A DNA stretch of 64,000 nucleotides from Myxococcales bacterium. GTDB lineage: Bacteria > Myxococcota_A > Polyangia > Palsa-1104 > SHYY01. The stretch covers positions 25,937 through 89,936 of the forward strand of contig SHYY01000003.1 in NCBI GenBank assembly GCA_009692555.1, in the 5' to 3' direction. The notes beneath the pieces are model-generated. The model did no database searches and was not told the DNA's origin. It saw nothing but the letters and a program-made list of their open reading frames with translations. Shown piece after piece: positions 53 through 56,370 of this stretch. The translations under genes were made by a program, and so were the position numbers. The first letter of the stretch is position 1. The number at the start of each line of letters is the position of its first letter.

Positions 53-2191
53 GTGCTGAGCGCGGTGTCGATCGCCAGCGTGTTCTCGGGCGCCTTCCTG
101 CTGTTTCTCGTCGAGCCGATGGTGGCCAAGATGGCGCTGCCGCGGTTCGGCGGCAGCCCGGCGGTGTGGAACATGTGCATGCTGCTGTTCCAGGCGCTCC
201 TGCTGGCAGGGTACGGCTACAGCCACCTCCTCGGGAGACGGCTCGTTCCCCGCAGGCAGGTGGCCGTTCACGGCGTGCTGCTGATTGCGTCGCTGGCCGC
301 GCTGCCACCGGTGCTGCGCGAGGTCGGGGATCCGACGGTACACCCGGCGCCCGCCCTGCTCTTCGCGGCGGCGTCCGCCGCGGGCGTGCCGTTCTTTCTG
401 CTCGCATCGCACAGCAGCCTCGCGCAGCGCTGGTTCTCGTTGCGGACCGGACGGGAGCCCTATTTCCTGTACGGCGCGTCGAACGTGGGGGCGCTGGCGG
501 CGCTGGTCGCCTACCCGCTGCTGATCGAGCCCTACCTGGGCGCGCGGTGCCAGGGGCACCTTTGGTCGGTCGGGTATGGGGTTTTCCTGGTGCTGGTCGC
601 GGGGGTTCTGGCGAGCGCATGGAAGAGCCCGCTGCCGTCGGTGACGGGCGTAGCGGTGGGCGCGGGATGGACGCAGCGCGGGCGCTGGCTCTTTCGTTCG
701 ACGACCGGATCGTGCCTCCTGCTCGCGATCTCTCTGCGGATCACCACCGACGTCGCGTCGCTGCCGCTCCTGTGGGTGGCGCCGCTCGCGCTCTACCTCG
801 CGACGTTCGTGCTCGCCTTCTCGCCCCGGATACCCTACCCGCGGCGGTGGCTGGAGATGCTGGTGGTGTGCGGTGTGACGGTCGGGCTCGGATCGACGCC
901 GATGGCGAACTCTCCGTCGCTGTGGCAAGCCCTGGGCCTGCCGCTCGCGACCCTTTTCGCGGGCTGCTGGGTCTGTCACGCCGACCTGGTGCGGGACCGG
1001 CCGCCCGTCGAGCACCTCACCGAGTTCTACGCGTGGATCGCCGTCGGTGGACTGCTCGGTGGCGTGCTGTGCAACCTGGTGGCGCCGCTGATCTTTGACA
1101 GCGTCGCCGAGTTCCCGATCGCGCTCCTGCTGCTGGCCGTGGCGCTCGCCTTCGGCGAGGACGGGGGCACCTCCCTCCGGCGCGCGCTCGGGCGACCGAT
1201 CACGTTTGCGGCGCCGGCGGCGATGGCGGCTGCGCTCGGCGTCTGGGCGTGGCAGATCGGCGGCGATCCAACGGCGGCCCACGCGTCCTGGAACCTGATC
1301 CCGCTCCTGGTCCTGGTCGCCGGGATGGCGCTTTGGCGGGTGCCCGCGCAGTTCTGCCTGGCGAGCGCGCTCGTCGCCGGGGTGAGCCTGGGCGGGCTCT
1401 ACACCAGCGGGCGGGTGCTCGCGGCGCGACGCAGCTTCTTCGGCGTGCTGCGTGTCATGCAGCTCGGCGATGGGCGCGTGATGGTCCACGGTACGACGGT
1501 CCACGGGGCGCAGATCACGAACCCGCTGCGGCGGGAGCCGGCGACCTACTACCACCCCGATGGGCCGATGGGCACGGTGGTGGCGGAGCAGCGCGACGGT
1601 GCTCGAATCGCGGTGGTGGGCCTCGGCAGCGGCTCTCTCGCGGCGCTGCTGCGTCCGGGACAGAAGATGACCTTTTTCGAGCTCGACCCGACGGTGGAAC
1701 CGATGGCGCGCGCATGGTTCACCTTCCTCGGCGAGAGCCGCGGCGAAGTGGCCGTCGTCGCCGGCGATGCGCGGTTGACCCTGCCCCGCGAGGCGGGCAG
1801 CGCGTTCGACCTCCTGGTGCTCGATGCGTTCACGGGCGACGCGGTGCCGGTGCATCTGCTCACGGTCGAGGCATTCAACCTCTACCTCGGGAAGGTCAAG
1901 ACCGGCGGCCTGCTGCTCCTCCACATCAGCAACCGCCACCTCGATCTCGCGCGCGTGGTGCGCGGCGCGTCGGCGCGACTGGGGCTGGCGACGGTCCGCA
2001 AGCGGTTCGGACCGACGGCGCGGCAGCTCGCCGAGGGGGCGCTGGAAAGCGATGTCGTGGCGGTGGCGCGCTCGCGGACCGATCTGGCGGCGCTGGAGCG
2101 CGAGGGATGGAGGCGGCTCGACGACGGAGAAGCGGTCACGTGGACCGACGACCGGTCGAGCCTGATCGGGCTTCTCCGGCTGCCGGAGTAG
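53..2191 (+). CDS. Fused polytopic membrane domain / spermidine-synthase-like (class I methyltransferase fold) protein
   Basis: 712-aa ORF. The N-terminal ~450 aa are hydrophobic multi-TM. The C-terminal part has VVGLGSGSLAALL...DLLVLDAFTGD...GGLLLLHISN, a spermidine-synthase-type fold. It is collinear with the paralog at 51403..53550 (N-termini share FLLFxVEPMxAKMxLPxFGG). Confidence 0.8.
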   Translation: MLSAVSIASVFSGAFLLFLVEPMVAKMALPRFGGSPAVWNMCMLLFQALLLAGYGYSHLLGRRLVPRRQVAVHGVLLIASLAALPPVLREVGDPTVHPAPALLFAAASAAGVPFFLLASHSSLAQRWFSLRTGREPYFLYGASNVGALAALVAYPLLIEPYLGARCQGHLWSVGYGVFLVLVAGVLASAWKSPLPSVTGVAVGAGWTQRGRWLFRSTTGSCLLLAISLRITTDVASLPLLWVAPLALYLATFVLAFSPRIPYPRRWLEMLVVCGVTVGLGSTPMANSPSLWQALGLPLATLFAGCWVCHADLVRDRPPVEHLTEFYAWIAVGGLLGGVLCNLVAPLIFDSVAEFPIALLLLAVALAFGEDGGTSLRRALGRPITFAAPAAMAAALGVWAWQIGGDPTAAHASWNLIPLLVLVAGMALWRVPAQFCLASALVAGVSLGGLYTSGRVLAARRSFFGVLRVMQLGDGRVMVHGTTVHGAQITNPLRREPATYYHPDGPMGTVVAEQRDGARIAVVGLGSGSLAALLRPGQKMTFFELDPTVEPMARAWFTFLGESRGEVAVVAGDARLTLPREAGSAFDLLVLDAFTGDAVPVHLLTVEAFNLYLGKVKTGGLLLLHISNRHLDLARVVRGASARLGLATVRKRFGPTARQLAEGALESDVVAVARSRTDLAALEREGWRRLDDGEAVTWTDDRSSLIGLLRLPE

Positions 2192-19149: not shown

Positions 19150-19235
19150 CGCGCGCAAAAGATCCTTTCAAAAAATTAGCTCCGCTCCGCGTTCGAGCGC
19201 AAGCTCGGCGGCGTTCACGCGAGCGAGAGAGCAGA

Positions 19236-22873: not shown

Positions 22874-22895
22874 GGGCGAGCGGAGGGTACCTTAC

Positions 22896-24176
<1,281 letters not shown>

Positions 24177-37113: not shown

Positions 37114-37366
37114 GGGGCGGTCTTCTACTTTCGCTCGCGCGGCGGGCCGCGACGAGAGGCTAGAGCATCGACCAGTTTACCCGGACCGAGCCCGCCGAGG
37201 GCCATTTCGGGTCCGGCGAGGCGCGAGGAGGGAGCAGGCTGGCGGCCTGTGACCGACGAGCAACGAAGTCGGGCGCGAAATGGGACCGGCCGGCGACGGG
37301 AGCGGTAGACTGATCGGTGCTCCAGGGGCGGGGCGGGAGCCAGGCCCGATTGTACGACGGCGGCGA

Positions 37367-39571: not shown

Positions 39572-39592
39572 GCAGGGTAGCGCATGCGCCGC

Positions 39593-41731: not shown

Positions 41732-42298
41732 CTAATCGTTTTCGCTGATCATGAGGAGGGCTCCGCCGCCACGGATCTGGACCTCGCCATCGAGGGTGAG
41801 GGTGCGCTGGAAGAACGAGGTCGCGCCGTCGCAGTTGAGGTCCCCCATCGCCTGGACCTGGGAGAAGTCACCGACCTTGCTGCCAGCACCGAGGGCGTGC
41901 ACGGTCTGGTAGGAGAAGTAGAACGGCTCGTCGACGCTGAAGTTCAAGGCCTGCCAGGTGGGGGTCCGCCAGTGGGCGGGGTTTGGGGCGCACTTGAATC
42001 CGGGCGAGCCGCAGCAGGTGCCGAGGGCGGGACTGATGGACTGTGCGTCGGTGAACTGGAACGCGAGGACCTTGCCGGCGGCATCCGCGTGGATGGTGTG
42101 GTGGTAGGCGATCGCGGAGTCGTAGATGACCCGGATGTTCATCGTCGCCTCTACGGTCTTCGAGCGGCGGACGTAATGGATGAAGGAGGGGATGGCGATC
42201 GCCGCGAGGACGCCGATCACGGCGACGACGATCATCAGCTCGACCAGGGTGAAGCCGGCCGGGAAGGGCGTGGATGAGGCTCCGGGGCGCCGGTTCAT
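41732..42298 (-). CDS. Type IV pilin-like protein (paralog)
   Basis: MNRRPGASSTPFPAG|[36 protein letters not shown]. It shares [13 protein letters not shown] and NCD motifs with the neighbouring pilin. The start is set at ATG 42298; the listed ORF extends spuriously through the repeat. Confidence 0.85.
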   Translation of the reverse strand: MNRRPGASSTPFPAGFTLVELMIVVAVIGVLAAIAIPSFIHYVRRSKTVEATMNIRVIYDSAIAYHHTIHADAAGKVLAFQFTDAQSISPALGTCCGSPGFKCAPNPAHWRTPTWQALNFSVDEPFYFSYQTVHALGAGSKVGDFSQVQAMGDLNCDGATSFFQRTLTLDGEVQIRGGGALLMISEND

Positions 42299-42311: not shown

Positions 42312-42327
42312 CCAAGAGCCGTGCCAG
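42312..42327 (-). promoter_or_regulatory. Sigma54-like promoter CCTGGCAC-N5-TTGGG abutting the 57-bp repeat
   Basis: The motif architecture matches 41622..41637, but the -12 element is only ~14 nt from the ATG. This implies a nearly leaderless transcript or a non-functional site. Confidence 0.3.
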
Positions 42328-42448
42328 GCTCAGTCCCCGAAGACCCAGGGGACGCTTTGGAGCCGCCTGCGGCGGGTCGGTGAGGCTCAGTCCCCGAAGA
42401 CCCAGGGGACGCTTTGGAGCCGCCTGCGGCGGGTCGGTGAGGCTCAGT
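42327..42448. repeat. Perfect 57-bp tandem repeat x2 plus an 8-bp third partial copy
   Basis: 42327-42383 and 42384-42440 are identical (GGCTCAGTCCCCGAAGACCCAGGGGACGCTTTGGAGCCGCCTGCGGCGGGTCGGTGA). 42441-42448 repeats GGCTCAGT, which contains the cytochrome stop codon. Confidence 0.95.
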
Positions 42449-44684
42449 GGGCATGCCAGCCCAGGGCGGAGTGGCAATCGGCGCAGCTCCAGCCGCGGAA
42501 CATGTGGTTGGGGTTCTGGGGGCGGTCCTTGGCGTGGCAGGTGACGCACTCGGTGCGGAGGCCGGTCCACTGGTTGTTCTTGTGGCAGTCGGCACACGGG
42601 GTGACGAAGTGGCGGCCGCGCAGGGGGAACTCGCTGCGGTCGTGATCGAAGCGCACCAGGAGCCAGCGATCGGGCTTGTGGCAATCGGCGCATTCGCGGC
42701 CCAGGGCGCCGCGGTGGGGGTCGCCGTGGCAGCTCTGGCAGGCGGGGTCGAGGCGGGCGCCGCGGGCCGTGTCGTGGCAGGTGAGGCACTTCACGGCGGC
42801 GTGGCGGCGCTCGAGGGGGAAGCCGGTCTTCTCGGCGTGCGCGAAGGGCGGGACGTCGGCGAAGCGGGTGGGCTGGTGGCAGCTCGTGCATTCCTTGCCG
42901 AACTGCGCGCCGTGGACCGCGGTGTGGCAGGTGGCGCAGGTGATCGGGCGCGCGACCTTGCTCAGGCGCTCGCGATCGGCGCCGTGGCAGGAGGCGCAGG
43001 CGCGCTTCGCGTGGGCGCCTGAGAGGGCGAAGCCGGTGGCGGCGGCGTGGTCGAAGTTCACGACCTCGTTGAAGCTGGTCTCGGTGTGGCAGCGACGGCA
43101 GTCGGTGCCGAAGCGGGCGCCGTGGGCGTCGGTGTGGCAGGAGGCGCAGGCGGTGGGTGTGCCGACGAACTTGCCGCCGGTGTGGCAGCGCGCGCACGCG
43201 ACCTTCTCGTGCGCCGCGCGGAGCGGGAAGGCGAACTTCGCGTGCTCGGCGAGGCCGATCGTCGAGGGCTTCCACGAGGTTCCGGTGTGGCAGTCGCGGC
43301 ACGACCAGCGCGGCGAGACGGCGTGGGCTCCGTCGTCCGGGGCGAGGTGGGCGCGCGCTTGCGAAGGCGCAGGCAGCGACGGTGATGCGGCTTTCCGCGG
43401 AGCCTTGAACTGGCCCTCGTGCGGGTCGCCGTGGCAGAGAACGCAGGCGTTCGGGCCGGGGACGAAGGCGCCCTTGGCAAAGCGGGTGTGGCAGGTCTGG
43501 CAGGCCACCGGGGAGTGCGCGCCGTCGAGCGGGAAGCGGGTGGTGTCGTGCGAGAAGCGCGCGGGGGTGAAGCCCTTGGTGTCGTGGCAGGCGGCGCAGG
43601 GGCCGAAGTCGCCGTGCTTGGGGGCCTTCGGGCCGGTCAGGAGGTGGCAGCTCTCGCACTTCGTCGGCGCGCCCTTGAAGATGCCGGGCCTGGTGTGGCA
43701 GCTCTCGCAGCCGACGGTGAGGTGCATCCCTTCGAGGGGGAAGCCGACAACTTTCTTGTTGTGGTCGAAGGTCTTCTTTTTCCAGGAGAGCGCGGAGTGG
43801 CAGCGCGCGCAGGCGCCGAGGTCCTCGTGCTTGAGATCTTTCTTGTGGCAGGAGGCGCACTCGAAGGGCGTGGGCTCGAACTTGTAGGCGGGGTGGCAGG
43901 AGAGGCAGGGCGCGGTCTGGTGCTTGCCCGGGAGGATGCAGGCGCAGAAGTCGTGGGCGTGGGTGGCCTTCTTCCAGTCGAGCGGGGTGTGGCAGGTGTC
44001 GCACGCGGCCTTGGTGCCGCCGTGCTTCTGCTCGTGGCAGTCGCCGCAGCTGGCCTTCGCGACGTAGTGGGTGCCGTTCTTGTGGCAGGTGGCGCAGATC
44101 AGGCCCTGGTGGCCGCCGATCATCGGGACCTTGTGATCGGCGGCGGTGCGCGTCGGGGGGACCCAGGCGGCGCTGCTGTGGCACTGCTGGCACTTCGGGC
44201 CGAGCGAGCCCTTGTGGTGGGTGTCGGCGTGGCAGCCGACGCAGGTGGTGGGGATTCCGGCCCATTTCGGGCCGTGTCCACCGTCGGGGTGGCAGCTCTG
44301 GCAGAGGGCCGGCTGGTGGGCGCCGGTGAGGACGACGCCGGTGACCTTGTGATCGAAGGTCTTCGGATCGATCGGCGGGGTGAGGCGGAAGTCCCGGCCC
44401 TTGTGATCGCCGTGGCAGGCGCTGCACTTCTGCTTGGCGAGCGGGCCGTGGAAGCCCTTGCCGGAGCGGACCTGGGCGGCGGTGTGCTCGTGGCAGGAGA
44501 GGCAGTTGGCCTGCGGGATGCCCTGGAAGGGGACGTGGCATTTGTCGCACTTGCCGTCGAGGGCGGCGTGCGGGGCGGCGAGCGGGCCAGGAGTGACGAG
44601 CCCGCGGAAGTCGGCGCGCGCGGATCTGGAGAGCAGCCCGAGAAGGGCGGCGACGGCGACGAGTGGGAGGGCGCGGCGGATCAC
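42444..44684 (-). CDS. Multiheme cytochrome c, 30 CXXCH motifs in 746 aa
   Basis: A GTG start overlaps the upstream stop (GTGA). The signal peptide is VIRRALPLVAVAALLGLLSRSARA. I counted 30 CXXCH motifs, about one per 25 residues, with many extra His residues as distal ligands (c3/c7-type density). Confidence 0.9.
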   Translation of the reverse strand: MIRRALPLVAVAALLGLLSRSARADFRGLVTPGPLAAPHAALDGKCDKCHVPFQGIPQANCLSCHEHTAAQVRSGKGFHGPLAKQKCSACHGDHKGRDFRLTPPIDPKTFDHKVTGVVLTGAHQPALCQSCHPDGGHGPKWAGIPTTCVGCHADTHHKGSLGPKCQQCHSSAAWVPPTRTAADHKVPMIGGHQGLICATCHKNGTHYVAKASCGDCHEQKHGGTKAACDTCHTPLDWKKATHAHDFCACILPGKHQTAPCLSCHPAYKFEPTPFECASCHKKDLKHEDLGACARCHSALSWKKKTFDHNKKVVGFPLEGMHLTVGCESCHTRPGIFKGAPTKCESCHLLTGPKAPKHGDFGPCAACHDTKGFTPARFSHDTTRFPLDGAHSPVACQTCHTRFAKGAFVPGPNACVLCHGDPHEGQFKAPRKAASPSLPAPSQARAHLAPDDGAHAVSPRWSCRDCHTGTSWKPSTIGLAEHAKFAFPLRAAHEKVACARCHTGGKFVGTPTACASCHTDAHGARFGTDCRRCHTETSFNEVVNFDHAAATGFALSGAHAKRACASCHGADRERLSKVARPITCATCHTAVHGAQFGKECTSCHQPTRFADVPPFAHAEKTGFPLERRHAAVKCLTCHDTARGARLDPACQSCHGDPHRGALGRECADCHKPDRWLLVRFDHDRSEFPLRGRHFVTPCADCHKNNQWTGLRTECVTCHAKDRPQNPNHMFRGWSCADCHSALGWHAH

Positions 44685-46120
44685 AGCGCGTACCCCAGCT
44701 GGACCAGCGTCCGGAGCTGCTTCCCGTCGAGGGCCAGCTCGGCGTCGAGGCCGGCGAAGAAGTCGCGCCAGAGCGCGAACAGGCGGAGGTAGGCGATCCG
44801 CTGCGCGCCCAGGACGAGCGGGAAGAGCTCGCTCGTCGGGCCGGCGTCCATGGCTTGCTTGGCGTGATTCGAGAAGGCGAGCCCGGTGCCGATCGCGTCG
44901 GTGTAAAGCACGCCGACGCGCGCGTCGAGCCAGGGGCGGAGGAACGATAGGCCGCCGGTGACGACGAGGTTGCCGCGCGGCTTCTTGCACTCCAGCGGCT
45001 TGGCGGGGTCGCACTCGATGCGGTCGACCTGGTAGACGTCGCCGCCGACGGTGGCGAAGGCGCCGAAGCCGGCGAGCAGGTTCTCCGCGTCGACCTGGCC
45101 CTCGAAGCGGTGGATGACGTCGGTGTTCTCGCGGAAGCGCAGACGGTAGCGCGCACCGACGCGGAGGGCGCGCCAGATCCGCACCCCGGCCTTCAGGGTG
45201 TGATCCTCGAACGAGCCGCCAGCCGCGGCGATCGCGTTGTTGAGCGGCTGCACCGGGACGAGCAGGCGCACGCGCTGGAAATCGAAGGCGTAGGAGAGGC
45301 GGAGGCGCTTTTGCGGCCGCCACTCACCGACGGCGTAGGCCATGAGCGATCCGATCGGCTGGCTGTCGACGGTCGGGACGTCGGTGAAGTGGCCGGCCTG
45401 CGACGAGTAGGTGACCAGGTAGCGCGAGCCAAGCGTCAGGCCGCCCGCGAGCATCACGTCGGCGTGGGGGAGGACGAGGAGCTGGGCGTCGAGGAAGTTC
45501 TCGTTGGTCTGACGGCTGGCCGGCGTCGCCTCGGCCGCGCCGCGCTGGAACTCGAGGAGATCGTCGGTGCGGGTGAAGAACAGCGAGGCGCGGACCACCG
45601 GATGGTCGACGGCGGCGCCGGCGCCGTAGAGGGGGAGAAGGTGGCCGCGGAAGGTGGCGTCGGCGCGACCGCCGGTGAAGGCGCGGACGCCGCCGTAGGC
45701 TTGCAGCGAGAGGGGGCCCAGGCGGAGGGTGGCCGCGCCGCCGTCGTTGATCAGCCAGAATCCGCCGCCGACCGGGAAGCGACCGACGGTGAGGTCGAGC
45801 CGCCCGAACAGGTCGTTGACCCGCAGGGAGAGGTTGTGGAGCTGGTGGCGCGACTGCTTGCTGTTGTAGCCGAGCGATGAGTCGGCGGCGAGGAACGACT
45901 CGCGATCGCGGTAGTCGAGGCGGAGATCGAAGCGCTTGCCGAGGCGGCGGAGATCGGCGCGCAGCGCGAAGCCGAGGTCGAGGTTGGCCGGGCTGCCGGT
46001 GCCGGGCTGGTTGACGCCGAAGAGATCGATCCCGCCGAGGAGGTGCAGATCGGCAGCGCGGGAGGCCCCGGGGGCAGCCGCGACGAGGGCCGCGGCGGCG
46101 ATCGCCAGGAGGCGTCTCAC
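44681..46120 (-). CDS. Putative outer-membrane beta-barrel protein
   Basis: The GTG start overlaps the upstream stop (GTGA). The signal peptide is VRRLLAIAAAALVAAAPGASRA. Alternating amphipathic strand patterns occur (RLDLTVGRF, LRLSYAFDF, VGARYRLRF) and the sequence is Gly/Asp/Arg-rich with no long hydrophobic helix. The C-terminus is ...VQLGYAL. No family was recognised. Confidence 0.5.
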   Translation of the reverse strand: MRRLLAIAAAALVAAAPGASRAADLHLLGGIDLFGVNQPGTGSPANLDLGFALRADLRRLGKRFDLRLDYRDRESFLAADSSLGYNSKQSRHQLHNLSLRVNDLFGRLDLTVGRFPVGGGFWLINDGGAATLRLGPLSLQAYGGVRAFTGGRADATFRGHLLPLYGAGAAVDHPVVRASLFFTRTDDLLEFQRGAAEATPASRQTNENFLDAQLLVLPHADVMLAGGLTLGSRYLVTYSSQAGHFTDVPTVDSQPIGSLMAYAVGEWRPQKRLRLSYAFDFQRVRLLVPVQPLNNAIAAAGGSFEDHTLKAGVRIWRALRVGARYRLRFRENTDVIHRFEGQVDAENLLAGFGAFATVGGDVYQVDRIECDPAKPLECKKPRGNLVVTGGLSFLRPWLDARVGVLYTDAIGTGLAFSNHAKQAMDAGPTSELFPLVLGAQRIAYLRLFALWRDFFAGLDAELALDGKQLRTLVQLGYAL

Positions 46121-47019
46121 CCGGTCATTCCTGCGCTGTAAATGTAGTGGCCGAGGACGTGGAGAATGGTCGCGCCGAGGAGGATGAAGGTCAGCGGCTT
46201 GTGCAGGATCGTCCAGCCACGGAAGAGGCGCTCGGCCGCGTTGAAGGTGGCGAGGCGGCGGGCGAGCATCACCCGGCGGCGGGTGGCGGCGACGAAGGCT
46301 TCGAGCTTCTCGCGATCCTCCCGCTCGCTGTGCAGCGCGAGGAGCTGGGTCTGACGATCGGCCAGGGCGCGCTCGAGCTGGCGCAGGGCGCGCCGGGCGC
46401 GGAGGTCTTCGCCGAGGATGCGCAGAAGAGGAACCCGGCCGGTCAGCGTCGGCGCGTCCTGCTCGCACGCCGCGATGGCCGCCGCCACCTCGGGGGTGGG
46501 GACATGGCCGCCGACTCCCTTCAGGTCCGCGAGCTCGGCCTCGATCTGCTTCGCGTTGAGGCGATCGCCCGCGAGTGACTTCGGGATGAGCGCGTACAGG
46601 TAGCGCCCGAACAGCCCCGAGGCGACCACGATCGCGACGCACAGGATGTTGAGGCCCTGGATGCTCTTCGCCTGGTGGAGGTGCAGGCTGTGGTAGGTGA
46701 CGAAGAGCGCCCCCTGGAGGCCGAGGAAGATGTGGAGGTGGAGCCAGGAGCGCAGCCTTCCGAGGCCACGCATCGCCTTCAGCCGGCGGCGCAGCGAGTA
46801 GATGTGCATCAGCACCATGGAGGCGGTGCCGGCCCAGCCGAGGAGGTAGCTGTAGCGGCCGGAGCCCGACTGCTCGGGGGCCAGAACGGCGAGGGCCACC
46901 AGCGCGGCTACCTCGGCCAGAAGCAGCGCGTAATAGGCGGCCGGCAGCACCACCTCGGCGGGGGGCGCCGCTTTTTTGTTGATCCCGGTGACCGGCGCAG
47001 CCTGGCTCTCCGTCGTCAC
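46117..47019 (-). CDS. Polytopic inner-membrane protein with two intramembrane His pairs (candidate di-heme b-type/ferric-reductase-like domain) and a cytoplasmic coiled-coil insert
   Basis: 300 aa with 5 predicted TM helices. His96/His110 lie in one TM (WLHLHIFLGLQGALFVTYH) and His273/His287 in the last TM (ILHKPLTFILLGATILH), each pair 14 residues apart. An LRRR...G...W..LH pattern resembles ferric-reductase-type domains. Confidence 0.5.
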   Translation of the reverse strand: MTTESQAAPVTGINKKAAPPAEVVLPAAYYALLLAEVAALVALAVLAPEQSGSGRYSYLLGWAGTASMVLMHIYSLRRRLKAMRGLGRLRSWLHLHIFLGLQGALFVTYHSLHLHQAKSIQGLNILCVAIVVASGLFGRYLYALIPKSLAGDRLNAKQIEAELADLKGVGGHVPTPEVAAAIAACEQDAPTLTGRVPLLRILGEDLRARRALRQLERALADRQTQLLALHSEREDREKLEAFVAATRRRVMLARRLATFNAAERLFRGWTILHKPLTFILLGATILHVLGHYIYSAGMTG

Positions 47020-47135: not shown

Positions 47136-49262
47136 GTGTCCGACGTCCGCGACCCTCCACCGCCGGCGAGGACGCTCGTCGTCGGGCTGGGGCTGATCGC
47201 GCTCCTGGCCGTCGCCTTCGGGACCCGGTTCGTCGCGACCTGGGGCGGGGCGCGGCTCGACGGTCAGTACGTCCTCTCCGCCGACAGCGACCCCTACTAC
47301 CACTTCCACCGTCTCACCTACCTCTACCACCAGCACGCGCCTCTGGTGGTGGACTACCACGCGGCCGCCCCGGCGCGCTTCGAGTGCGTATGGCCCGTGG
47401 CGCTCGAGTACATCGCTCTCTTGCTGGACCGCGCGGTCTTCGGCGCCGAGCGGGACCTCGAGTCGCTGCTGCTGATCGCCGGTTTCGTGCCGGTGCTGTT
47501 CGGGCTGGCGGCGATCCTGGCGGCGTTCGCCGCGTCGCTGCGGGCCACATCGCCGGGGGCCGCCCTTGCCGGCGCGGCCGCGCTCGCCATTGTGCCGGGA
47601 GCGATTCACGTCAGCTCGTTCTCGCTGTTCGACCATCATTGCGTCGAGCTGCTGATCGTTGTCGCGCTGCCCGCGATCGCCGCGCGCGCGCTGCTGGCGC
47701 ACCCCGCCGCGGCGGCGACCGGCGGGTTCGTCAGCCTCGGCCTGTCTGTTCTTGCGGCGGACGCGACCTACCTGGTCATGGCGAGCTTCGGGGCGAGCGC
47801 GTTGCTGCTCGCCCTGCGCGGCGGGGCGAACCCGGAGAGGGACCGCGGGCTGGCACCGTTTCTCGTCGGTGGGCTGGGCGGAGTGGTGAGTGCGTCCGCG
47901 CTCGAGGTGGCCCTCGGGCTGCCGCGGCTGCTCCCGCACGGCGGGAGGATCGGGCTGATGCTGGCCGTCGTCGGGGCGGGGCTGCTGGTCGGGGCGCGGG
48001 TCGGGCGACGCATCGCAGGGATCGCCTGCCTGCTGGTCGCAGCGCCGCTCACACTGCCTACCGTTCTGACCGCCGTCCGGTATCTCACGGCGACCGCCGA
48101 CGCGATCAGTCCGAACATCGCCGAGGCGATTCCGATCTGGCGGAACGTTCCTGCACCGCGGATCGCGGTCTACTGCGGCCTCGCGCTTCTCACAATCGTC
48201 CAGGCGTGGCGGCGGCGAGGCGACGCCAGAGAGGCATTTCCGTCGCTGGCGGCGGCTGGTGCCGCGGTGATCGGGCTGGTCCAGCGGAAGTACCTGTTCC
48301 TCCTCGGGGCGGCCGTGGCGTGGGCCATTTCGCGCACGGTCCACGATCTCGTGCCGGCCGCACCCGGGCGACGGCGACTGGCGGCGCAGTGCGCGATCGC
48401 GGTCGTTCTTTGCGGCGTGGTCGTCGAGCGGACGGGGCATGCCGTCGCCATCGCACCGTCGGACGTCTCGCCCGGCGACGTCGCCTTCGCCCGGCTTGCA
48501 CGCCTGATCGACCAGCGCCTCCCGCCGCAGACGCCGTTCGTTCCCGGATCGCGCCCGGCGTGGGCGATCGCGGTCGAGCCCTCGCTGGGACCGAGGGCGC
48601 TCCACCTCGGCGGGAGGGCGGTCACGGCGCTCCCGTTCTGGGGCACCCCCGAGCTGGCAGGACAGTTCCAGCGCACGCTCCTGGCCCTTCTGGCCGGCGA
48701 CGAGGCCGAGGCGCATCGCCTGCTCGATGGGCTGTCGGCCCGCTTTGTGTTGATTTCTGATCTCGAGCCGCTGCTCCCCTTCGTGATCGCCGCGACGGGG
48801 CGCCCCCCGGCCTCCTTCACCCGCCCGGAGGACGAGCGCGCCGCGATCCGCGGGGCCCTGTGGTACCGCCTCCACCACCTGCGGGGCGCAGCCTCCGAGG
48901 ACGGCGTCCCCGCGCTCGGTCGCTTCCGACTGGTCGCTTCGGCGGGCCATGGCACCGACGGTCTGGCGCTGTTCGAGCGGGTGCCCGGAGCGGAGATCGC
49001 GGGTACCGCTCCCCCCGGCGCGAGGGTGCTCCTGTTCGCCCGGATCCATTCTCCCGATGGCGAGGACTTCACGTGGGTCGCGACGGCTCCCACCGATGCC
49101 GCGGGCCGATTCGCGCTGCGAGTGCCCTATGCCACAGAGGAGGTCGGCGGGCGCGCCCACGCGGTGGAGCTTCGCGTGCGCTGCCCCGGGCGTGAGTTCG
49201 CCCTCGCCGTCCCCGAGAGCGCGGTGGCCAGCGGCTGGCGCGTCGCGGCAGACTGCTCGTGA
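47136..49262 (+). CDS. Large GT-C-like membrane protein, possibly STT3/AglB-related
   Basis: 708 aa. The N-terminal ~480 aa are multi-TM, with SADSDPYYHFHRL after TM1, resembling the DxD..YYH.R first-loop motif of STT3-type enzymes. The C-terminal part is a soluble domain. I could not find a WWDYG motif. Confidence 0.45.
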   Translation: MSDVRDPPPPARTLVVGLGLIALLAVAFGTRFVATWGGARLDGQYVLSADSDPYYHFHRLTYLYHQHAPLVVDYHAAAPARFECVWPVALEYIALLLDRAVFGAERDLESLLLIAGFVPVLFGLAAILAAFAASLRATSPGAALAGAAALAIVPGAIHVSSFSLFDHHCVELLIVVALPAIAARALLAHPAAAATGGFVSLGLSVLAADATYLVMASFGASALLLALRGGANPERDRGLAPFLVGGLGGVVSASALEVALGLPRLLPHGGRIGLMLAVVGAGLLVGARVGRRIAGIACLLVAAPLTLPTVLTAVRYLTATADAISPNIAEAIPIWRNVPAPRIAVYCGLALLTIVQAWRRRGDAREAFPSLAAAGAAVIGLVQRKYLFLLGAAVAWAISRTVHDLVPAAPGRRRLAAQCAIAVVLCGVVVERTGHAVAIAPSDVSPGDVAFARLARLIDQRLPPQTPFVPGSRPAWAIAVEPSLGPRALHLGGRAVTALPFWGTPELAGQFQRTLLALLAGDEAEAHRLLDGLSARFVLISDLEPLLPFVIAATGRPPASFTRPEDERAAIRGALWYRLHHLRGAASEDGVPALGRFRLVASAGHGTDGLALFERVPGAEIAGTAPPGARVLLFARIHSPDGEDFTWVATAPTDAAGRFALRVPYATEEVGGRAHAVELRVRCPGREFALAVPESAVASGWRVAADCS

Positions 49263-49313
49263 CCACCCACCGCGGGCACACGATGGCTGGCCCTGCGACG
49301 CGGGCTCAACCCG

Positions 49314-51308
49314 GTGGCGGTTGACAGCGGCATGTCGTCCGCGGAGCGTCAGCGCAGTTCCCGTCAGGCTCCAAGGGGTGCGGCGGTCGGGTGGCGCGGA
49401 ATCGCCGCGTGGGCGGGGCTGATCGTCGTCGGCGCGCTCGCGCTCTACGCGCCCTCCGTCGGCCACCCGTTCGTGATCGACGACTTCGCCTACATCGCGG
49501 AGAACCAGGCGGTGACCTCGGGCGCTCCGCTGCGCGACTACTTCCTCGAGCGCGCTACCACCGCTGGCGACGCCCACCTCGCGACTCAGTCCTACCGGCC
49601 CCTGCGAACGCTCGCGTTCCGGGCGGTGGTGCGCACCTTCGGGCTGCGCCCGGTGGCTTTCGGGTGGGCGAATCGGGCTCTCTACGCGCTGTCGATCATC
49701 GGAGTGCTCCTGGTAGCGCTGCGGGTCACCCGTGACGCCGCGGCTTCGCTCGTCGCCACGGCTCTCTGGGCCCTCGCGCCGGTCCATGTCGAACCGGTCC
49801 TCTATGCCTCGTCTCTCGGAGACCACCTGTCCCTGCTGCTCGAGCTCGGCGCCCTCGCGAGCGGTGCGTTCGTGATCGGTGGCGGCGCGCTGGCCAGGCC
49901 AGGGCACCCTCTGGCGCGGCCGGCAGGGGTACACACGGCGGCCCTGCTCGGGGCGGCGGCGCTGTCACTCGTGCTCGCTGCCCTGGCGATGCTGGCGAAG
50001 GAGATGGCGGTGACGGCGTGCGCACTGCTGGCGGCGTGGGCGCTCCGGGACGGCCCGCGCGCGCTCGTCCGACTGCGCACGGGGCTCCTGCTGATGGCCC
50101 ATGGGGCGTTGGCGATCGCCTGTGTGGGCGCGGGCGTGGCCGTCCGCGGCACCCCGCTCGGCCACGCGCCAATCGACGCCGCCAGCCTCGGGCACGGCGT
50201 GCGGCAGGCGCCGGTACTCCTGCTCGAATACGCCCGGCTGTACGTCGTCCCGCTCGGCCATCATCCCGGCTATGTGCTGCCCGAGCCATCGGTCGCCGTC
50301 TCGCTCGCTGCGCTCGCCGTTGTCGTTGCCCTGGCGCTGGCCACGTGGAGGGCGCGGCTCCCGGGGCTCGCCCTGGGCCTCGCCGGCTACGCGATCGCGC
50401 TCCTGCCGGTGCTGCAGCTCGTCCCGATCCTCGCCGATCTTGCGGACCGGTTCGCGCTGGTACCGTCGGTGGGCCTGGCACTGGCGACGGCAGCGCTGAT
50501 CACCGCGGCCCCGGATCGCCTCCGGGGCCTCGCGCTCGTGCCGTGCGCCTTCGCGCTCCTGCTTTTTGCCGCGGGCACCCTGGTCGAGCAGCGTGCGTGG
50601 TCGAGCGAGGAGGCGCTCTGGGCGCACTCCGTGGAGCTCGCCCCGGAGTCGGCGCAAGCCCATGCCAACCTGGGGGTGGTGCGGCTGGCCTCCGGGCAGG
50701 CCAGGGAGGCACTGGCGGAGCTCGATCGCGCGCGGGCGCTGGGCCGGCGGGCGGCGCCGCTCGAGTTCCGACGGGCGGTCGCCCTCCATGACCTTGGGCG
50801 CTTCGAGGAGGCGGCGCGGGCCGTCGAGGAGGCGCTCGCGCTCGATCCCCTCCACGGCGCGGCCCATGCGCTGAAGGGCGACCTGTCTCGTCGGCGGGGG
50901 CAGCTCGTGGAGGCGGCCACGGAGCTCGATCGGGCGCGCACGCTGTCTCCGCTTCATCCGTCGATCACGCTGCTCGCCGCGAACCTCGCCGAGGCGAATG
51001 GGCGCCCCCAAGACTCCGCGCGCGAGCTCTCGGAGCTGGTCGGGCGCTCCCCGGAAGTTCCGCGCTTCCAGTATCTCCTCGGTCGTGCCGCGCTGCTCGC
51101 CGGCGACGCCGGCCTGGCGCTCCGGGCGGCGGACGCCTGTCTCGCGCTCGACCACGCGCAGCCCCAGTGCCGCTGCATCCGGGGGCGCGCTCTGACGGTC
51201 ACCGGGCGGGTCGACGAGGCGCGCGTCGCGCTGGATCAGGCGCTCGCGGCTCTCGACGACGGTCCCGAACGTGCGGCGTGCGAGGAGGCGCGGCGTCGGC
51301 TGCCATGA
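49314..51308 (+). CDS. TMTC-like GT-C-fold membrane protein with C-terminal TPR repeats
   Basis: 664 aa with HPFVIDD...SYRPLRTLAF in the first loop. It has about 10 TM helices and at least 6 clear TPR-like repeats at the C-terminus. The start may be the ATG at 49332. Confidence 0.7.
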   Translation: MAVDSGMSSAERQRSSRQAPRGAAVGWRGIAAWAGLIVVGALALYAPSVGHPFVIDDFAYIAENQAVTSGAPLRDYFLERATTAGDAHLATQSYRPLRTLAFRAVVRTFGLRPVAFGWANRALYALSIIGVLLVALRVTRDAAASLVATALWALAPVHVEPVLYASSLGDHLSLLLELGALASGAFVIGGGALARPGHPLARPAGVHTAALLGAAALSLVLAALAMLAKEMAVTACALLAAWALRDGPRALVRLRTGLLLMAHGALAIACVGAGVAVRGTPLGHAPIDAASLGHGVRQAPVLLLEYARLYVVPLGHHPGYVLPEPSVAVSLAALAVVVALALATWRARLPGLALGLAGYAIALLPVLQLVPILADLADRFALVPSVGLALATAALITAAPDRLRGLALVPCAFALLLFAAGTLVEQRAWSSEEALWAHSVELAPESAQAHANLGVVRLASGQAREALAELDRARALGRRAAPLEFRRAVALHDLGRFEEAARAVEEALALDPLHGAAHALKGDLSRRRGQLVEAATELDRARTLSPLHPSITLLAANLAEANGRPQDSARELSELVGRSPEVPRFQYLLGRAALLAGDAGLALRAADACLALDHAQPQCRCIRGRALTVTGRVDEARVALDQALAALDDGPERAACEEARRRLP

Positions 51309-51402
51309 GCGTGCTCGCGGGGCTCGCCGGCAATCGCCGGCGTGCAGCAAGCTCGGAGCGCAACGGTCCAGGAGTCACTCGCCACCCCGCTCGCCGGGAG
51401 GC

Positions 51403-53550
51403 TTATTCCAGGAAGACTGCGAGGAGGCTCGATCGGTCGTCGGTCCACTCGACGGCCGGGTGATCGCCGAGCGGGCTCCATCCGTCTTCGAGGAGCGCGG
51501 CGATCGGCGCGGCGGCGGGCGACAGAGCGACCACCGTGTTCGGCGCCACCCCCTGCTTTTCCAGTGCCTCGTCCGGAACGAACCGCCTGAGCGCGGCGTG
51601 TAGACCGAGTCGGCGCGCGGTCGCGCGGAGCACGCGCGCGAGATCGAGGTAGCGGTTGCTGACGTGGACCAGCAGCACGCCGTCCGGGGCGAGCCTCGCG
51701 ACGTAGAGCGCGACCGCCTCGACCGTGAGGAGGTGCAGGGGCACCGCATCCCCGCTGAAGGCGTCGACCACCAGCAGGTCGGAGGAGGTGGCCGGCGCCC
51801 GCTTCAGCGTCAGGCGCGCATCGCCCACCACCACGTCGACCGTGCCGCGGCTGTCGCGGAGGAAGGTGAACCAGCGCCGCGCCATCTCCTCGACCAGCGG
51901 ATCGATCTCGTAGTAGGTCATGCTCTGGCCGGGAGAGAGCAGGGCGGCGAGGGCGCCCGTGCCGAGGCCGACGACGGCGATCCGGGCGCCCGGCCGCTGG
52001 CGAAGCACCGCCGCTCCCATCGGCGTTCGCGGGTGGTAGTAGCTCCCCGGCGTGCTGCTCGGCGGGTCGATCATCTGGACGCCGTGCTCGGTCATGCCAT
52101 GCATCAGCCGCCGCTGGGTCTTTCCTTCGGCGACCCGCAGCACGCCAAAGAAGCTCCGGCGGGCCTCGAGGATCCGCACCTCGTGATGCAGCCCCAGCAC
52201 GGCGAAGAGCCCGACCAGCGCGCACGCGAACAGGAAGCGCTCGGGCCGCTTCCACGCCAGCAGCCCGGCCAACAGGACCACGAGCGGAAGCATCTCACCG
52301 ACGGCGCGAGCGTCGGCATCGGCGGTCCGGATGAGGAGGAGGGCGACGGCGAGGACGGCTGCCATGGCGGCCGGCGCGAGGTAGCTCGTGCGGCGCCGGA
52401 GTGCGCCGAGAAGCGCCGCGCCGCGATCCTCCTTCAACGCGAGCACCACGGCGACCAGCACCAGCGCCAGCGGGTACTCGAGGAGATCGTCGAACACGAG
52501 CGGCGCGGCGAGGCTGCCGAGTAGACCGCCCAGGACTCCGCCGAGCGCGACCCACAGGTAGAACTCGGTCAGCCGGTCGGGCGGCGGGCGATCGCGCGCC
52601 AGGTCGGCGTGGCAGATCCAGCAGCCGAGGAAGAGCGCCCCGAGCGGCGGCATCAACTCGCGAAACAGCGAACCCGCGAGCAGCCAGGGCCACGGCACGA
52701 TCGCGAGGGTGATGAACATCATCGCGAAGGGCTCGATCTTCGCGCGCGGGTAGGGGAGCCACGCGAGGAAGGCGAGGATGAAGCTGAGCAGGTAGAGCCC
52801 GAGCGGGACGGTCCACAGGAGCGGAACGGGAGCGAGATCGGTGGTGATCCGCTGCGAGACGGCGAGCAGCAGCAGCGACGGCACGGCCGGGAGGAGCAGC
52901 CAGCGAAGGCGGCGCGACCAGGCGATCGATGCGCTCGGCGCCGCGCGTGGGATCGCTGATCGTTTTCCGGCCAGGGCGGCCACCATCGCGAGCACGGTGA
53001 TCGCGACGAAGCCCAGGTAGCCGACGGTGAAGAGCCGCCGCTGCCACGCGAGGCCGATCAGCGGCTCGATCACGAAGGGATAGGCGAGCAGCGCGACGAG
53101 CGAGCCGGCGTTCGAGGCCGCGTAGAGGAAGTAGGGCTCGCGGCCCGAGCGAAGCGCGTACCAGCGCTGGACAAGGCTGCTGTTGGCCGAGAGCACGAGG
53201 AACGGGGGGCCGATCGCCGCCCCGAGGGCCGCGAGGAGCGGGAGAACTGGCCACTCGCCGGGACCGGGCAGGAAGCGCTCCGAGAGCGCCAGCGGGAGGG
53301 CGAGCAGCGACCCGAGGAGGAGGACGAGATGGAGCGCCATCTGCGTGCGCGTGCCGAGGAGGCTCCCACCGTGGCTGTAGGCGTATCCGCACAGGAGGAG
53401 CGCCTGGAAGAACAGGAGGCAGGTGTTCCAGATCGCCGGGCCCCCGCCGAACCACGGGAGGATCATCTTCGCGATCATCGGCTCGACGGTGAAGAGCAGG
53501 AACGAGCTGACGAGGATCGCGCCGGCCAGGACCGCGGAGGCGAAGCGCAC
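51403..53550 (-). CDS. Fused polytopic membrane domain / spermidine-synthase-like protein (paralog of 53..2191)
   Basis: 715 aa, collinear with the window-start gene. It shares FLLFTVEPMIAKMILPWFGG, CWICHADLARDRPP and VVGLGTGALAALL...DLLVVDAFSGD...GVLLVHVSN. Confidence 0.8.
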   Translation of the reverse strand: MRFASAVLAGAILVSSFLLFTVEPMIAKMILPWFGGGPAIWNTCLLFFQALLLCGYAYSHGGSLLGTRTQMALHLVLLLGSLLALPLALSERFLPGPGEWPVLPLLAALGAAIGPPFLVLSANSSLVQRWYALRSGREPYFLYAASNAGSLVALLAYPFVIEPLIGLAWQRRLFTVGYLGFVAITVLAMVAALAGKRSAIPRAAPSASIAWSRRLRWLLLPAVPSLLLLAVSQRITTDLAPVPLLWTVPLGLYLLSFILAFLAWLPYPRAKIEPFAMMFITLAIVPWPWLLAGSLFRELMPPLGALFLGCWICHADLARDRPPPDRLTEFYLWVALGGVLGGLLGSLAAPLVFDDLLEYPLALVLVAVVLALKEDRGAALLGALRRRTSYLAPAAMAAVLAVALLLIRTADADARAVGEMLPLVVLLAGLLAWKRPERFLFACALVGLFAVLGLHHEVRILEARRSFFGVLRVAEGKTQRRLMHGMTEHGVQMIDPPSSTPGSYYHPRTPMGAAVLRQRPGARIAVVGLGTGALAALLSPGQSMTYYEIDPLVEEMARRWFTFLRDSRGTVDVVVGDARLTLKRAPATSSDLLVVDAFSGDAVPLHLLTVEAVALYVARLAPDGVLLVHVSNRYLDLARVLRATARRLGLHAALRRFVPDEALEKQGVAPNTVVALSPAAAPIAALLEDGWSPLGDHPAVEWTDDRSSLLAVFLE

Positions 53551-53623
53551 GCGCGAATCCTACCATGGTGGGCGAGGGCCGCCCGCTTGCCGCCTCCGTC
53601 GGGGACATGCTAGAAAACGGCTC

Positions 53624-55063
53624 TTGGCGCACGAGAAACGGTGGCCCGGGGCGTGGGCGGCGGGGCGGTGTGCCGCTCTCCTGGGCGTGGTGCTGGTCGT
53701 CTCGGTGTGCCGGATCGTCGAGCACGACACGCCGTGGCTGCTGCGGGCGGGCGAGGAGATCCTGCGCACCCGGTCGCTGCCGCGTCTCGATCCGTTCTCC
53801 TACACCTCGCAGCAGGAGTGGCTGAACCACGAGTGGCTGGCCGAGGTGCTGCTGGCGGCGACGCACCGGCTGGGCGGGCTGCTCGGCCTCGGGCTGCTCC
53901 AGGGAATCGTGTGCGCGGCGACGGTCGGCCTGCTGGTGTGGGCCCGCCCACGCGGCGACGAGAATCGCGATCCACTCGCCGGGTTTGCGCCGGTCGCCTT
54001 CGCGGCGGCGGCGGCGATCCTGCGCGAGGCCGCCTCGCCGCGCGCCCAGCTGTTCGCTAATTTGCTGTTTGCCGCCACGTTGGCGGTTGCCCTTCGCTCG
54101 GCCAGGGCACGCCAGGGTGGTGGTTCCGCGCGCATGGCCGCGGCGCTGGCGATCGGGCTCGCCCTCACCCAGGTCCACGGAGGAAACCCGAACGTGGCCA
54201 TCCTCTTCGGCCTGCTATTTCTCTCCGCTCCGTCGCTGCGGAACGCCCTGATGGCGCTCGCGGCCGCGGCGCTGACGTGCGCCGGGCCCTACGGCTACCA
54301 CGTCCACGAGCACTTCCTGCGCGGACAGGACACCCTGCCGGTGTTCCACGAGTGGCGCCCGCTCTCGTTTGCGGTGAGCGAGGGCTCGCCGATCCTGATC
54401 GGCTTCCTGGTGCTGGACCTCGCGGCGTTCGGCGCGCTCCTCCATCGCCACCGACGGGGCGAGAACATCCGCTTCGAGGCGCTGGCGCTGCTCTTCTTCA
54501 GCGCGGCGGCGGCGCGCTACGTGCGGTTCTCGTCGGAGGCGTCGATGGTCGCGGCGGTGGTGCTCGCCCCGGCCCTGGCGCGGATCCGCCCCGGGCGCGC
54601 CGGCATCCTCGGGCTCGCCGCCGCCCTCGCGCTCCTCGTCGCTGTGCTGCCGCTGTCGGCGCGCGGGATCGGGATCGGCTTCGAGGCGGATCGATTTCCG
54701 ATCGCCGCGGTCGAGTTCCTGCGCGCGCAGCACCCGCCAGGGCCGATGTTCAACAGCTACGGCTATGGCGGCTACCTCATGTGGGCATGGCCCGAAGAGC
54801 GGGTTTTCATCGACGGGCGCGCCTTCACGGTCTACCCGGCCGATCGCATCGGCGATCTGCTCGCGGTGTACGACGATCCTCCGCGCTTTCGTGAGCTCGA
54901 ACGCCGCTTCGGATTTCGTCTCGCCGTGCTGCAACGCAGCGGTCGCGGCGCCGCGCTCGTCGAGGAGCTGCGGAAGCGCGCCGACTGGCGGATCGTCCAC
55001 GAGGACGCGGTGGCGACGGTGCTGGTGCGCGACGCAGGACCCGCGGACCCGCCTGCCCGATGA
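53624..55063 (+). CDS. Polytopic membrane protein, GT-C-like (family not resolved)
   Basis: The long ORF frame from 53423 overlaps the divergent gene, so the start is tentatively moved to TTG 53624, before a basic stretch and the first TM. It has about 11 TM helices. The C-terminal soluble tail is FNSYGYGGYLMWAWPEERVFIDGR... Confidence 0.45.
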   Translation: MAHEKRWPGAWAAGRCAALLGVVLVVSVCRIVEHDTPWLLRAGEEILRTRSLPRLDPFSYTSQQEWLNHEWLAEVLLAATHRLGGLLGLGLLQGIVCAATVGLLVWARPRGDENRDPLAGFAPVAFAAAAAILREAASPRAQLFANLLFAATLAVALRSARARQGGGSARMAAALAIGLALTQVHGGNPNVAILFGLLFLSAPSLRNALMALAAAALTCAGPYGYHVHEHFLRGQDTLPVFHEWRPLSFAVSEGSPILIGFLVLDLAAFGALLHRHRRGENIRFEALALLFFSAAAARYVRFSSEASMVAAVVLAPALARIRPGRAGILGLAAALALLVAVLPLSARGIGIGFEADRFPIAAVEFLRAQHPPGPMFNSYGYGGYLMWAWPEERVFIDGRAFTVYPADRIGDLLAVYDDPPRFRELERRFGFRLAVLQRSGRGAALVEELRKRADWRIVHEDAVATVLVRDAGPADPPAR

Positions 55064-55281: not shown

Positions 55282-56370
55282 ATGCGCCCCGCTGTCCGCT
55301 CGGCCGCAATCGACGCGCTGCGAGGGGTGGCGATCCTGCTCGTGCTTGGCCGGCACATTCCGGAGGTGTTGCAGCTCCCGGCCGTGGTGCACACTGCCCT
55401 GGCCGAGTGGCGGCGGTTCGGCTGGATTGGGGTGGACCTGTTCTTCGTGCTGAGCGGGTTCCTGGTGAGCGGGCTGCTGTTCCGGGAGCATCAGCGGCAC
55501 GGCCGCCTCTTCGCCGGACGTTTTCTGATCCGGCGCGGCTTCAAGATCTACCCCGGATTCTACCTCCTGCTCTTTGCCACCTGGCTGGTTCTCGGCCGAT
55601 GGCTGCCTCCGCACGCGCTGCTCTCGGAGGGGCTGTTCGTGCAGAACTACTGGCTGAGCGCGTGGGCCCACACCTAGTCCCTCGCCATCGAGGAGCACTT
55701 TTACCTCGTGCTGGTCGCGCTGTGCGCGCTGCTGGCTCGGGCGCGCGGGTCGTCCGGCGATCCGTTCCGGGTGATCCCGCGCCTGTTCGTCGTGGTCGGC
55801 GTCTTCGTGCTGCTCCTGCGCGTCGCCAACTACGCCATCGTTCCCTATTCACACACGACGCACCTGATACCGACCCACCTCCGGATCGACGGGCTTCTGT
55901 TCGGCGTGGCCCTCTGCTACGGGTGGACCTACCATCGGGCGTCCGTCGAGGCGCGGCTGCATCGTCGCGGCGCCCTCCTCGCGGCATCCATCGCGCTGCT
56001 GCTGCCGAGTCTGCTACTCGATATCGAGCGGGACTGGGCAGTCAGCACCGTCGGCCTGACCCTCAACTACCTGGGCTTCGGCGGGATCCTGCTGCTCGCG
56101 ATCAGCGCGCCCCCGTCGAGCGGAACGCTGCGGAGGCATCTGGTCGCCGTGGTGGCGCGGATCGGCTTCTACTCCTACTCGATCTACCTGTGGCACCTCC
56201 TGATGCTGGTGTTTGCCGAGATGGTGCGTCGGCACCTGGGCGATGTCGCCACGCTCGGCCTCTACCTCCTCCTCAGCGTCGCCGGCGGCATGGTCCTCGG
56301 CAGGGTGATCGAGGGTCCGTTCCTGGCGCTGCGCGACCGTCTCTTTCCGTCGCGGTCGGGGGTGGATTGA
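55282..56370 (+). pseudogene. Acyltransferase-3 (OafA/YrhL-like) family gene with an in-frame TAG
   Basis: The 55282..55677 ORF ends ...LSAWAHT*. The same frame continues SLAIEEHFYLVLVAL... to 56370. The family motif at this point is H-x-W-S-L-x-x-E-E-x-F-Y, so TAG (55675-55677) replaces the conserved Trp codon TGG. Confidence 0.75.

Follow-up and report, generated by a model that had tools for sequence, protein, structure and literature searches.

Enzymes of the STT3 family are functionally defined by WWDYG, the motif that reads the N-X-S/T sequon. Pseudomonas aeruginosa TfpW, an arabinosyltransferase of the type C glycosyltransferase (GT-C) class, is encoded beside the pilin that it glycosylates. 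In spermidine synthases of the SpeE type, the Asp of the GGGDG loop selects decarboxylated S-adenosylmethionine (SAM). The TMTC proteins carry a DD pair in external loop 1 (EL1) together with the motifs SYRP, KE(T/Q)xxT and ERxxY (PMC7801869), and all of them match DUF1736, which covers the loop between transmembrane helices (TM) 7 and 8. The scarce STT3 genes of bacteria are reported to derive from euryarchaea (PMC4973528). Archaeal pilins are described as glycosylated by AglB (PMC5131992). This paper concerns a cluster of four genes, here called g1 to g4, in a 64,000-nucleotide stretch of DNA from a Myxococcales bacterium (contig SHYY01000003.1, positions 25,937 to 89,936); the whole stretch is referred to as the window. 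We give a probability of roughly 0.55 to the reading that envelope-modifying enzymes are gathered here in a neighbourhood particular to this lineage, which is neither a complete pathway nor an operon conserved elsewhere. Three of the four genes are predicted to encode enzymes of the GT-C type, g1 and g4 being firmly established as such and g2 by motifs. New here, as judged from sequence, are an AglB-like clade devoid of the WWD motif, to which g1 belongs, and a family of miniature STT3 relatives without annotation, represented by g4. The four genes are as follows.

47136..49262, + strand: g1, 708 aa, AglB-type STT3 (GT66-like) homologue with a C-terminal AglB_L1 domain (618-700).
49332 (alternative start 49314)..51308, + strand: g2, TMTC-like membrane domain of about 430 aa followed by a C-terminal tetratricopeptide repeat (TPR) domain.
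51403..53550, - strand: g3, 715 aa, polytopic domain of ~455 aa joined to a spermidine-synthase-fold domain.
53624..55063, + strand: g4, short STT3-related GT-C protein, 479 aa from a TTG at 53624 (called start 53687), divergent from g3 across a 73-nt spacer.

The source DNA was recovered in freshwater metagenomes of two studies, and the closest homologues carry the annotation of Polyangia or Myxococcales metagenome-assembled genomes (MAGs). Base composition is ~71% G+C across the window. Genuine genes were told from spurious open reading frames (ORFs) by third-position GC (GC3), and gene calls were cross-checked on two independent assemblies that encode an identical g1 protein. GC3 and the calls from these two assemblies support every gene of the cluster, and all the elements listed in an earlier annotation of this DNA, hereafter the original prediction, are present at or near the places it assigned to them.

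The original prediction had named g1 as an STT3-like candidate on the strength of SADSDPYYHFHRL after TM1, and had failed to find WWDYG. Both observations hold, and database profiles now place the protein. Against Pfam STT3 (PF02516, the STT3 N-terminal domain) g1 scores 29.6 bits for a cut-off of 24.5, and AglB_L1, an archaeal peripheral domain, is matched at 3.9e-11. The single g1 sequence returned no match from the PDB, for which a family profile was needed. A profile built from 28 relatives recovered Archaeoglobus fulgidus AglB-L (5gmy/3waj) over its full length at E=2e-92 and eukaryotic STT3A at 3.5e-28; the match to PglB was weak and partial, with E about 7e-6. The NCBIfam model TIGR04154 gave a score of 103.8, far under its cut-off of 450. 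On this profile evidence g1 is a true STT3/AglB homologue within the STT3 superfamily. A literature search for STT3 in myxobacteria found nothing.

The residues of the active site are strongly conserved. Among 115 aligned relatives of g1, D52 and D166 are present in all and H168 in 113, with D73 and H167 nearly invariant too; D52 and D166-H167-H168 pair with the DPWY and DHH of A. fulgidus AglB. The NIAE of g1, which contributes E330, is the TIXE/SVSE motif of EL5 and aligns with TIAE of the archaeal enzyme, Glu being kept at this position in 111/115. In 3WAJ, R426 is the Arg that binds the donor pyrophosphate (PMC7801869). The Arg site for the phosphate of the lipid-linked oligosaccharide is taken in g1 by K385, which is Lys in 12/12 members of the immediate clade and Arg in 98/115 relatives, so that charge is kept. 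The place of WWDYG is occupied by EPSLG (481-485). A replacement of this type is found in all 12 clade members, and none of the 12 has a Trp at the first or second position of the motif. The 103 wider relatives have the second Trp in 94 cases, the Asp in 32 and the literal WWDYG in nine, which makes just 9/115 overall. These 103 full-length AglB-like proteins are an extensive collection of STT3 homologues, non-canonical and for the most part without a name; one carries the name Omnitrophota. The metal and donor site of g1 (D52, D166, H168, E330 and K385) is thus predicted to be intact, and the defining acceptor-recognition motif is gone. The lost WWD motif is the one that reads Ser/Thr(+2), and the acceptor rule of g1 would therefore have to differ from N-X-S/T.

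The immediate clade is small. A word-indexed search with g1 found only four relatives, and an exhaustive profile search of 1.84 billion proteins found 1286, of which only 14 representatives lay below E=1e-30. When metagenomes were scanned with the g1 alignment, a single locus came up, one already known. Such rarity fits a view of g1 as a relic, a catalytically dead or repurposed STT3 serving as a scaffold or lectin-like protein, which stands next to other GT-C genes by chance in a paralogue-rich genome. Also in line with this view are the entire loss of WWDYG, the Lys in place of the phosphate-binding Arg, and the presence in the window of at least five GT-C-like genes and two copies of g3. 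The Gln found at E330 in two clade members points the same way and weighs against catalysis across the clade, some members of which may be inactive. However, D52, D73, D166, H167, H168 and most instances of E330 stay conserved even between clade members that share only about 26-36% identity, which argues for selection on the active site and makes a relic very unlikely.

The second STT3 relative, g4, had been described in the original prediction as a protein of ~11 TM with a soluble tail, and its gene was given a start at 53423. The gene is real and ends at 55063, but that start is too early and runs into g3. The automatic start at 53687 was also rejected, as it cuts off TM1. The TTG at 53624 restores TM1 and fits the consensus of homologues, lying 34 residues ahead of the first invariant Asp. 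About 40 close and about 60 distant homologues were found, some of them fused to TPRs. The single sequence matched nothing in Pfam, NCBIfam or the PDB. An AlphaFold (AF2) model built from 62 sequences reached a pLDDT of 94.8, and the top 25 Foldseek matches of this model in the PDB are all GT-C proteins, with query-normalized TM-scores of 0.33-0.60, mostly 0.5-0.6. The structures among these 25 include STT3, DPY19, AftA, AglB, PglB, AftD, AftB and EmbA. The GT-C fold and the acidic first-loop residues, on which the original prediction had hinged, are therefore both seen in g4, where the first-loop Asp is conserved.

Profile alignment (hhalign) extends the comparison to individual residues. The C-terminal half of g4 aligns with an STT3-like profile at 97.6% probability (E=3.6e-12, 227 columns): E222, in the sequence IREW, pairs with the Glu of TIXE, and R280 falls at the position that binds phosphate. 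Opposite the STT3 core lies the small periplasmic domain of g4, with NSYGYGG at the place of WWDYG. The N-terminal half reaches 88.6%, and D14 and D35 (P0126 numbering) fall opposite D52 and D73 of g1. By alignment and model, g4 is a short relative of STT3 that shares its predicted core residues with g1 and has no database family.

On the same strand as g1, and starting 52-70 nt 3' of it, g2 has the organization that the original prediction gave it, a TMTC-like protein with an FVIDD loop and at least six TPRs. The first loop contains FVIDD, and residues 430-664 form ~6-7 TPRs; Pfam assigns TPR_19 three times and other TPR families within residues 435-649, and the C-terminal 235 residues consist of TPRs. 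Six full-length orthologues (43-47% identity) come from Myxococcota MAGs. Five groups of residues are invariant in the seven sequences: (i) F47-D50-D51; (ii) Y88-R89-P90; (iii) P150-H152-E154, in a region that corresponds to HxxE after TM3; (iv) K223-E224..T228, which in g2 reads K223-E224-M-A-V-T228 and forms the KExxxT motif; and (v) D372-R373-F374, which stands in a late loop in place of the ERxxY of TMTCs (E to D, Y to L). The motifs of g2 are M1, M2, M4 and M7 of the TMTC motifs of Eisenhaber et al. (PMC7801869). The membrane domain matched no Pfam family, DUF1736 included, at E<=1 and no NCBIfam model, and DUF1736 was found in none of 13 relatives. Profiles of g2 matched only TPR proteins in the PDB, and nothing there over the membrane domain. 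PMT_2 is matched by 4/13 distant relatives, at best with 1.1e-5. Alignment with the STT3-like profile reaches 47-68% (hhalign), and the links of g2 to solved GT-C enzymes are weak and indirect. Its assignment as a TMTC-like GT-C of the PMT clan is well motivated, not proven.

Two further TMTC-like genes had been predicted at a distance from the cluster, and they are indeed paralogous proteins with membrane and TPR regions.

30807-32492 and 32584-34152, - strand: pair of TPR-membrane paralogues (PMT_2/TMTC-like) with 31% mutual identity.

Their signals in Pfam and NCBIfam are weak and are to PMT_2, DUF2079 and AZOBR_p60025.

Homology, fold, conserved motifs and lack of co-conservation are observed; donor type, topology, acceptors and activity are inferred. 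To judge by their families, g1, g2 and g4 would work on the periplasmic face, where they would transfer sugars from polyprenyl-phosphate-linked donors that other parts of the genome provide for; the TPR domain of g2 probably holds a protein acceptor. What kind of molecule is modified can be weighed in part from a neighbouring gene, which the original prediction had rightly called a broken O-acyltransferase.

55282..56370, + strand: pseudogene of an Acyl_transf_3 O-acyltransferase, interrupted by a single in-frame TAG (55675-55677).

Pfam Acyl_transf_3 matches both halves of this gene, and read-through translation of the DNA places the TAG at a conserved Trp codon of HTWSLAIEEHFY. An assembly error as the cause of the break is ruled out: contigs from three freshwater metagenome runs, which belong to two studies, all have the identical TAG, which marks it as a real, fixed nonsense allele. 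The O-acyltransferase is accordingly predicted to be inactive. It is of a glycan-decorating kind, and a gene of this kind next door would suit a role of the GT-C enzymes on non-protein acceptors such as lipid A or the lipopolysaccharide core, an exopolysaccharide or another glycopolymer, as is the case for ArnT or the Emb/Aft enzymes. Loss from g1 of the motif that reads peptides would suit it too, as would AftA, AftD, AftB and EmbA among the Foldseek matches of g4 and the weak match of the 30807 paralogue to AZOBR_p60025, a family of 'cell surface glycopolymer formation'. The TPR domains of g2 and of the paralogues suggest protein partners instead, g1 keeps the whole periplasmic architecture of AglB including AglB_L1, and genes for polysaccharide biosynthesis or export are absent nearby in the window. 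Non-protein acceptors are on balance unlikely.

The remaining gene of the cluster, g3, was correctly recognized in the original prediction as a 715-aa fusion of a membrane domain with a domain of aminopropyl- or methyltransferase fold; NF037959, the AF2 model and Foldseek agree on this. In the model (pLDDT 92), about 15 helices lead into a beta-hairpin domain (strands 459-501), after which comes a Rossmann fold. The 50 best Foldseek matches listed are all aminopropyltransferases, 3gjy being the best with a target-normalized TM-score of 0.63; all 50 places are filled by the spermidine synthase (SpdS) domain. By sequence, 3gjy is found in the PDB at 3.2e-5, and NF037959 is matched with 59.2 bits (cut-off 40) over the SpdS part only, at model positions 245-400 of 480. 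In place of GGGDG, g3 has G528-L-G-T-G532, the family consensus being GLGAG. E548, the Glu of the SAM-ribose site, D577 and D596, the Asp at the catalytic position, are invariant in the family columns. As the Asp of GGGDG is missing, the domain would use SAM more probably than decarboxylated SAM and would be a methyl- or other alkyl-transferase, not a genuine spermidine synthase. Conservation of the membrane domain in the family is strong; its likeness to the major facilitator superfamily (MFS) is faint, with PTR2 matched in 5/55 members. More than 2852 family matches were found, in Myxococcota, Planctomycetota, Verrucomicrobiota, Acidobacteriota and other phyla. A literature search on the function of fused MFS/spermidine synthases found nothing relevant. 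The window holds a second copy.

53..2191, + strand: g3-type fusion, 51% identical to g3 (blastp).

A YscJ/FliF-family gene (2237-2992) adjoins this second copy.

In g3 the SAM-type domain is expected to lie in the cytoplasm. The original prediction suggested that it may decorate a lipid-linked or polymer substrate within a periplasmic pathway, a proposal that would not agree with this location. We regard g3 as a probable separate and widespread membrane enzyme with a cytoplasmic SpdS-fold domain.

Whether the four genes make up one pathway was judged from their neighbours in related genomes (loci L002, L005, L006, L013, L021 and others). Orthologues of g1, g2, g3 and g4 have different neighbours elsewhere, so the co-conservation on which the original prediction relied is lacking. 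An overlapping class-I methyltransferase gene lies upstream of the g1 orthologues in L002, L005 and L006; downstream of those in L002 and L005 come genes for a sigma54 response regulator, for a pair of pilin-like proteins and for a 288-aa protein, not g2, g3 or g4. A member of the g1 clade at 36% identity has unrelated neighbours. The six g2 orthologues, from six MAGs, have no common neighbours, except that one lies beside pilins. The orthologues of g4 adjoin other TPR-membrane proteins, and g3 homologues occur in unrelated contexts. A 751-aa neighbour in L008 and a 648-aa neighbour in L010 were considered as orthologues of g3 or g2 and rejected on comparison. The 64-kb window contains no genes for GT2 enzymes, a priming transferase, a flippase, sugar-nucleotide synthesis or other steps of donor synthesis.

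These results bear on the proposal, made in the original prediction, that the clustering reflects a single periplasmic pathway of protein or glycan modification. In such a pathway the GT-C enzymes would work one after another, and a lipid-linked or polymer substrate would be decorated by the SpdS-fold enzyme. Some of the arrangement is suggestive. The genes lie inside 8 kb, 52-70 nt separate g1 from g2 on their common strand, and a 73-nt spacer lies between the divergent g3 and g4; the g3 homologue of L021 lies in the same syntenic block as pilins and a kinase, and L013 too has a dense group of GT-C genes. The differing neighbours of the orthologues of each gene tell against a single pathway, as do the absence of donor-synthesis and flippase genes from the window, the need of the g3 transferase domain for a cytoplasmic cofactor, and the huge, phylogenetically independent g3 family. 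A common pathway is, on this showing, improbable; clustering alone does not make these genes a pathway. The lineage-specific neighbourhood of envelope-modifying enzymes remains the preferred reading.

For the enzymes of this neighbourhood, exported proteins are suggested as the most plausible acceptors, and the type IV pilin-like proteins encoded nearby are first candidates, because genes of this kind adjoin STT3-like, TMTC-like or g3-like genes in the lineage. The window has two.

41019-41570, - strand: type IV pilin-like gene, N_methyl match.
41735-42292, - strand: type IV pilin-like gene, N_methyl match.

The second of these genes was not recovered by the GC3 ORF filter. Both proteins have a prepilin site (G|...) and a conserved ALNFSVD sequon, and are 55-57% identical to the pilB of L002, L005, L013 and L021. 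In L002 and L005 the block runs methyltransferase, STT3-like gene, sigma54 regulator (RR54), pilA, pilB, u288, PEGA kinase, u228 and OmpA, the STT3-like gene being immediately 5' of the regulator and pilA/pilB. L013 keeps the block without the STT3-like gene, and in L021 it is seen from RR54 onward, with a g3 homologue between OmpA and PEMT. The pilins of L013 are surrounded by a g2 orthologue, a PMT_2 protein and two TPR-membrane proteins, one of them a paralogue, and the locus appears to undergo turnover of GT-C genes. Within its conserved pilin block lies an IS200-like transposase (L013 6719-7399); a PMT_2 GT-C (15400-16779, 35.8 bits, above the cut-off) adjoins the methyltransferase. Tandem NAT sequons (GNATxNAT) and tails rich in Ser/Thr are found in the pilA copies from L002 and L005. 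The tandem NAT is absent in L013. One NFS is common to all copies of pilB.

A bolder reading of this linkage would make, in this Polyangia lineage, the WWD-less, AglB-derived STT3s and the TMTC/PMT-like GT-Cs interchangeable glycosylation cassettes for a type IV pilin-like pair under PilR-type regulation. If true, it would mean pilin glycosylation in bacteria by an enzyme of archaeal origin, with a new mode of acceptor recognition; we hold it to be unlikely. Several observations weigh against tying the cluster to pilins. The linkage, sampled in four or five related genomes, is found only in close relatives and is absent in the 36%-identical member of the g1 clade. Parts of the block are missing from the window itself, namely its methyltransferase, its sigma54 regulator and its pilin of the pilA type, and a cytochrome operon lies between the pilins of the window and g1. 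Inherited synteny would be an adequate alternative explanation of the linkage.

The surroundings contain further genes. The operon that separates the pilins from g1 (42444-47019, - strand, divergent from g1) encodes a multihaem cytochrome (Cytochrome_C7 six times), a 479-aa protein that has a signal peptide and looks like a barrel of the outer membrane, and a membrane protein of 300 aa; the trio resembles a porin-cytochrome electron conduit. Between the stop of the cytochrome gene and the first pilin gene lies a perfect 57-bp tandem repeat of 2.2 copies (42326-42448) with a GTCCCC...GGGGAC hairpin. A MoxR/TgpA-type cluster (34175-40915, - strand) between the TPR-membrane paralogues and the pilins comprises a MoxR AAA+ ATPase (36124-37113), a membrane protein that is transglutaminase-like and contains DUF4129 (37367-39571), and two proteins of 669 aa and 440 aa that belong to no family. 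Ordinary, unrelated context is provided by ftsZ and by genes for a Big_2 protein and for thrombospondin type-3 repeat proteins (16155-22260 and 22872-24176, both + strand).

The interest of the region lies in its enzymes. A conserved clade of bacterial STT3 homologues appears to keep the entire catalytic and donor site but has no trace of WWDYG, and g4 is a half-sized relative without a family; together they point to uncharted acceptor specificities in the oligosaccharyltransferase superfamily. If acceptors such as pilins were identified, a wider view of bacterial protein glycosylation and tools for glyco-engineering could follow.

Comparison with described systems sets each protein in its place. 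The g3 protein is above the cut-off of NF037959, 'fused MFS/spermidine synthase', on its SpdS part, and its 455-aa membrane domain is left unaligned to the N-terminus of that model. Its best match in both sequence and fold is 3GJY, a probable spermidine synthase of Corynebacterium glutamicum, and the Asp of GGGDG is absent in both. With TfpW the locus has no detectable sequence relationship, and the linkage in the window is looser, with 5 kb and an unrelated operon between; the likeness lies in a GT-C gene next to genes for type IV pilins, which is the case in L002, L005 and L013. Eukaryotic TMTC1-4, O-mannosyltransferases of the GT-C/PMT clan, have a membrane domain followed by TPRs, as does g2, and share with it the DD in EL1, SYRP, HxxE after TM3, KExxxT and (D/E)RF in a late loop. 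Unlike them, g2 has no match to DUF1736 or any other Pfam family over its membrane domain and has a bacterial host. The single-subunit bacterial enzyme PglB of Campylobacter lari (3RCE/5OGL) belongs to the superfamily of g1 and is distant from it: PglB has WWDYG and the MI motif, whereas the periplasmic domain of g1 is AglB-like. The system closest to g1 is archaeal AglB (STT3/GT66), represented by A. fulgidus AglB-L (3WAJ/5GMY). Unlike AglB, g1 has EPSLG for WWDYG, with neither Trp nor Asp, Lys for Arg at 385 and a bacterial host. The likeness nevertheless runs over the full length, and the two proteins share the EL1 Asp, DHH, the Glu of TIXE, the QxR/KF phosphate site and the C-terminal AglB_L1 domain.

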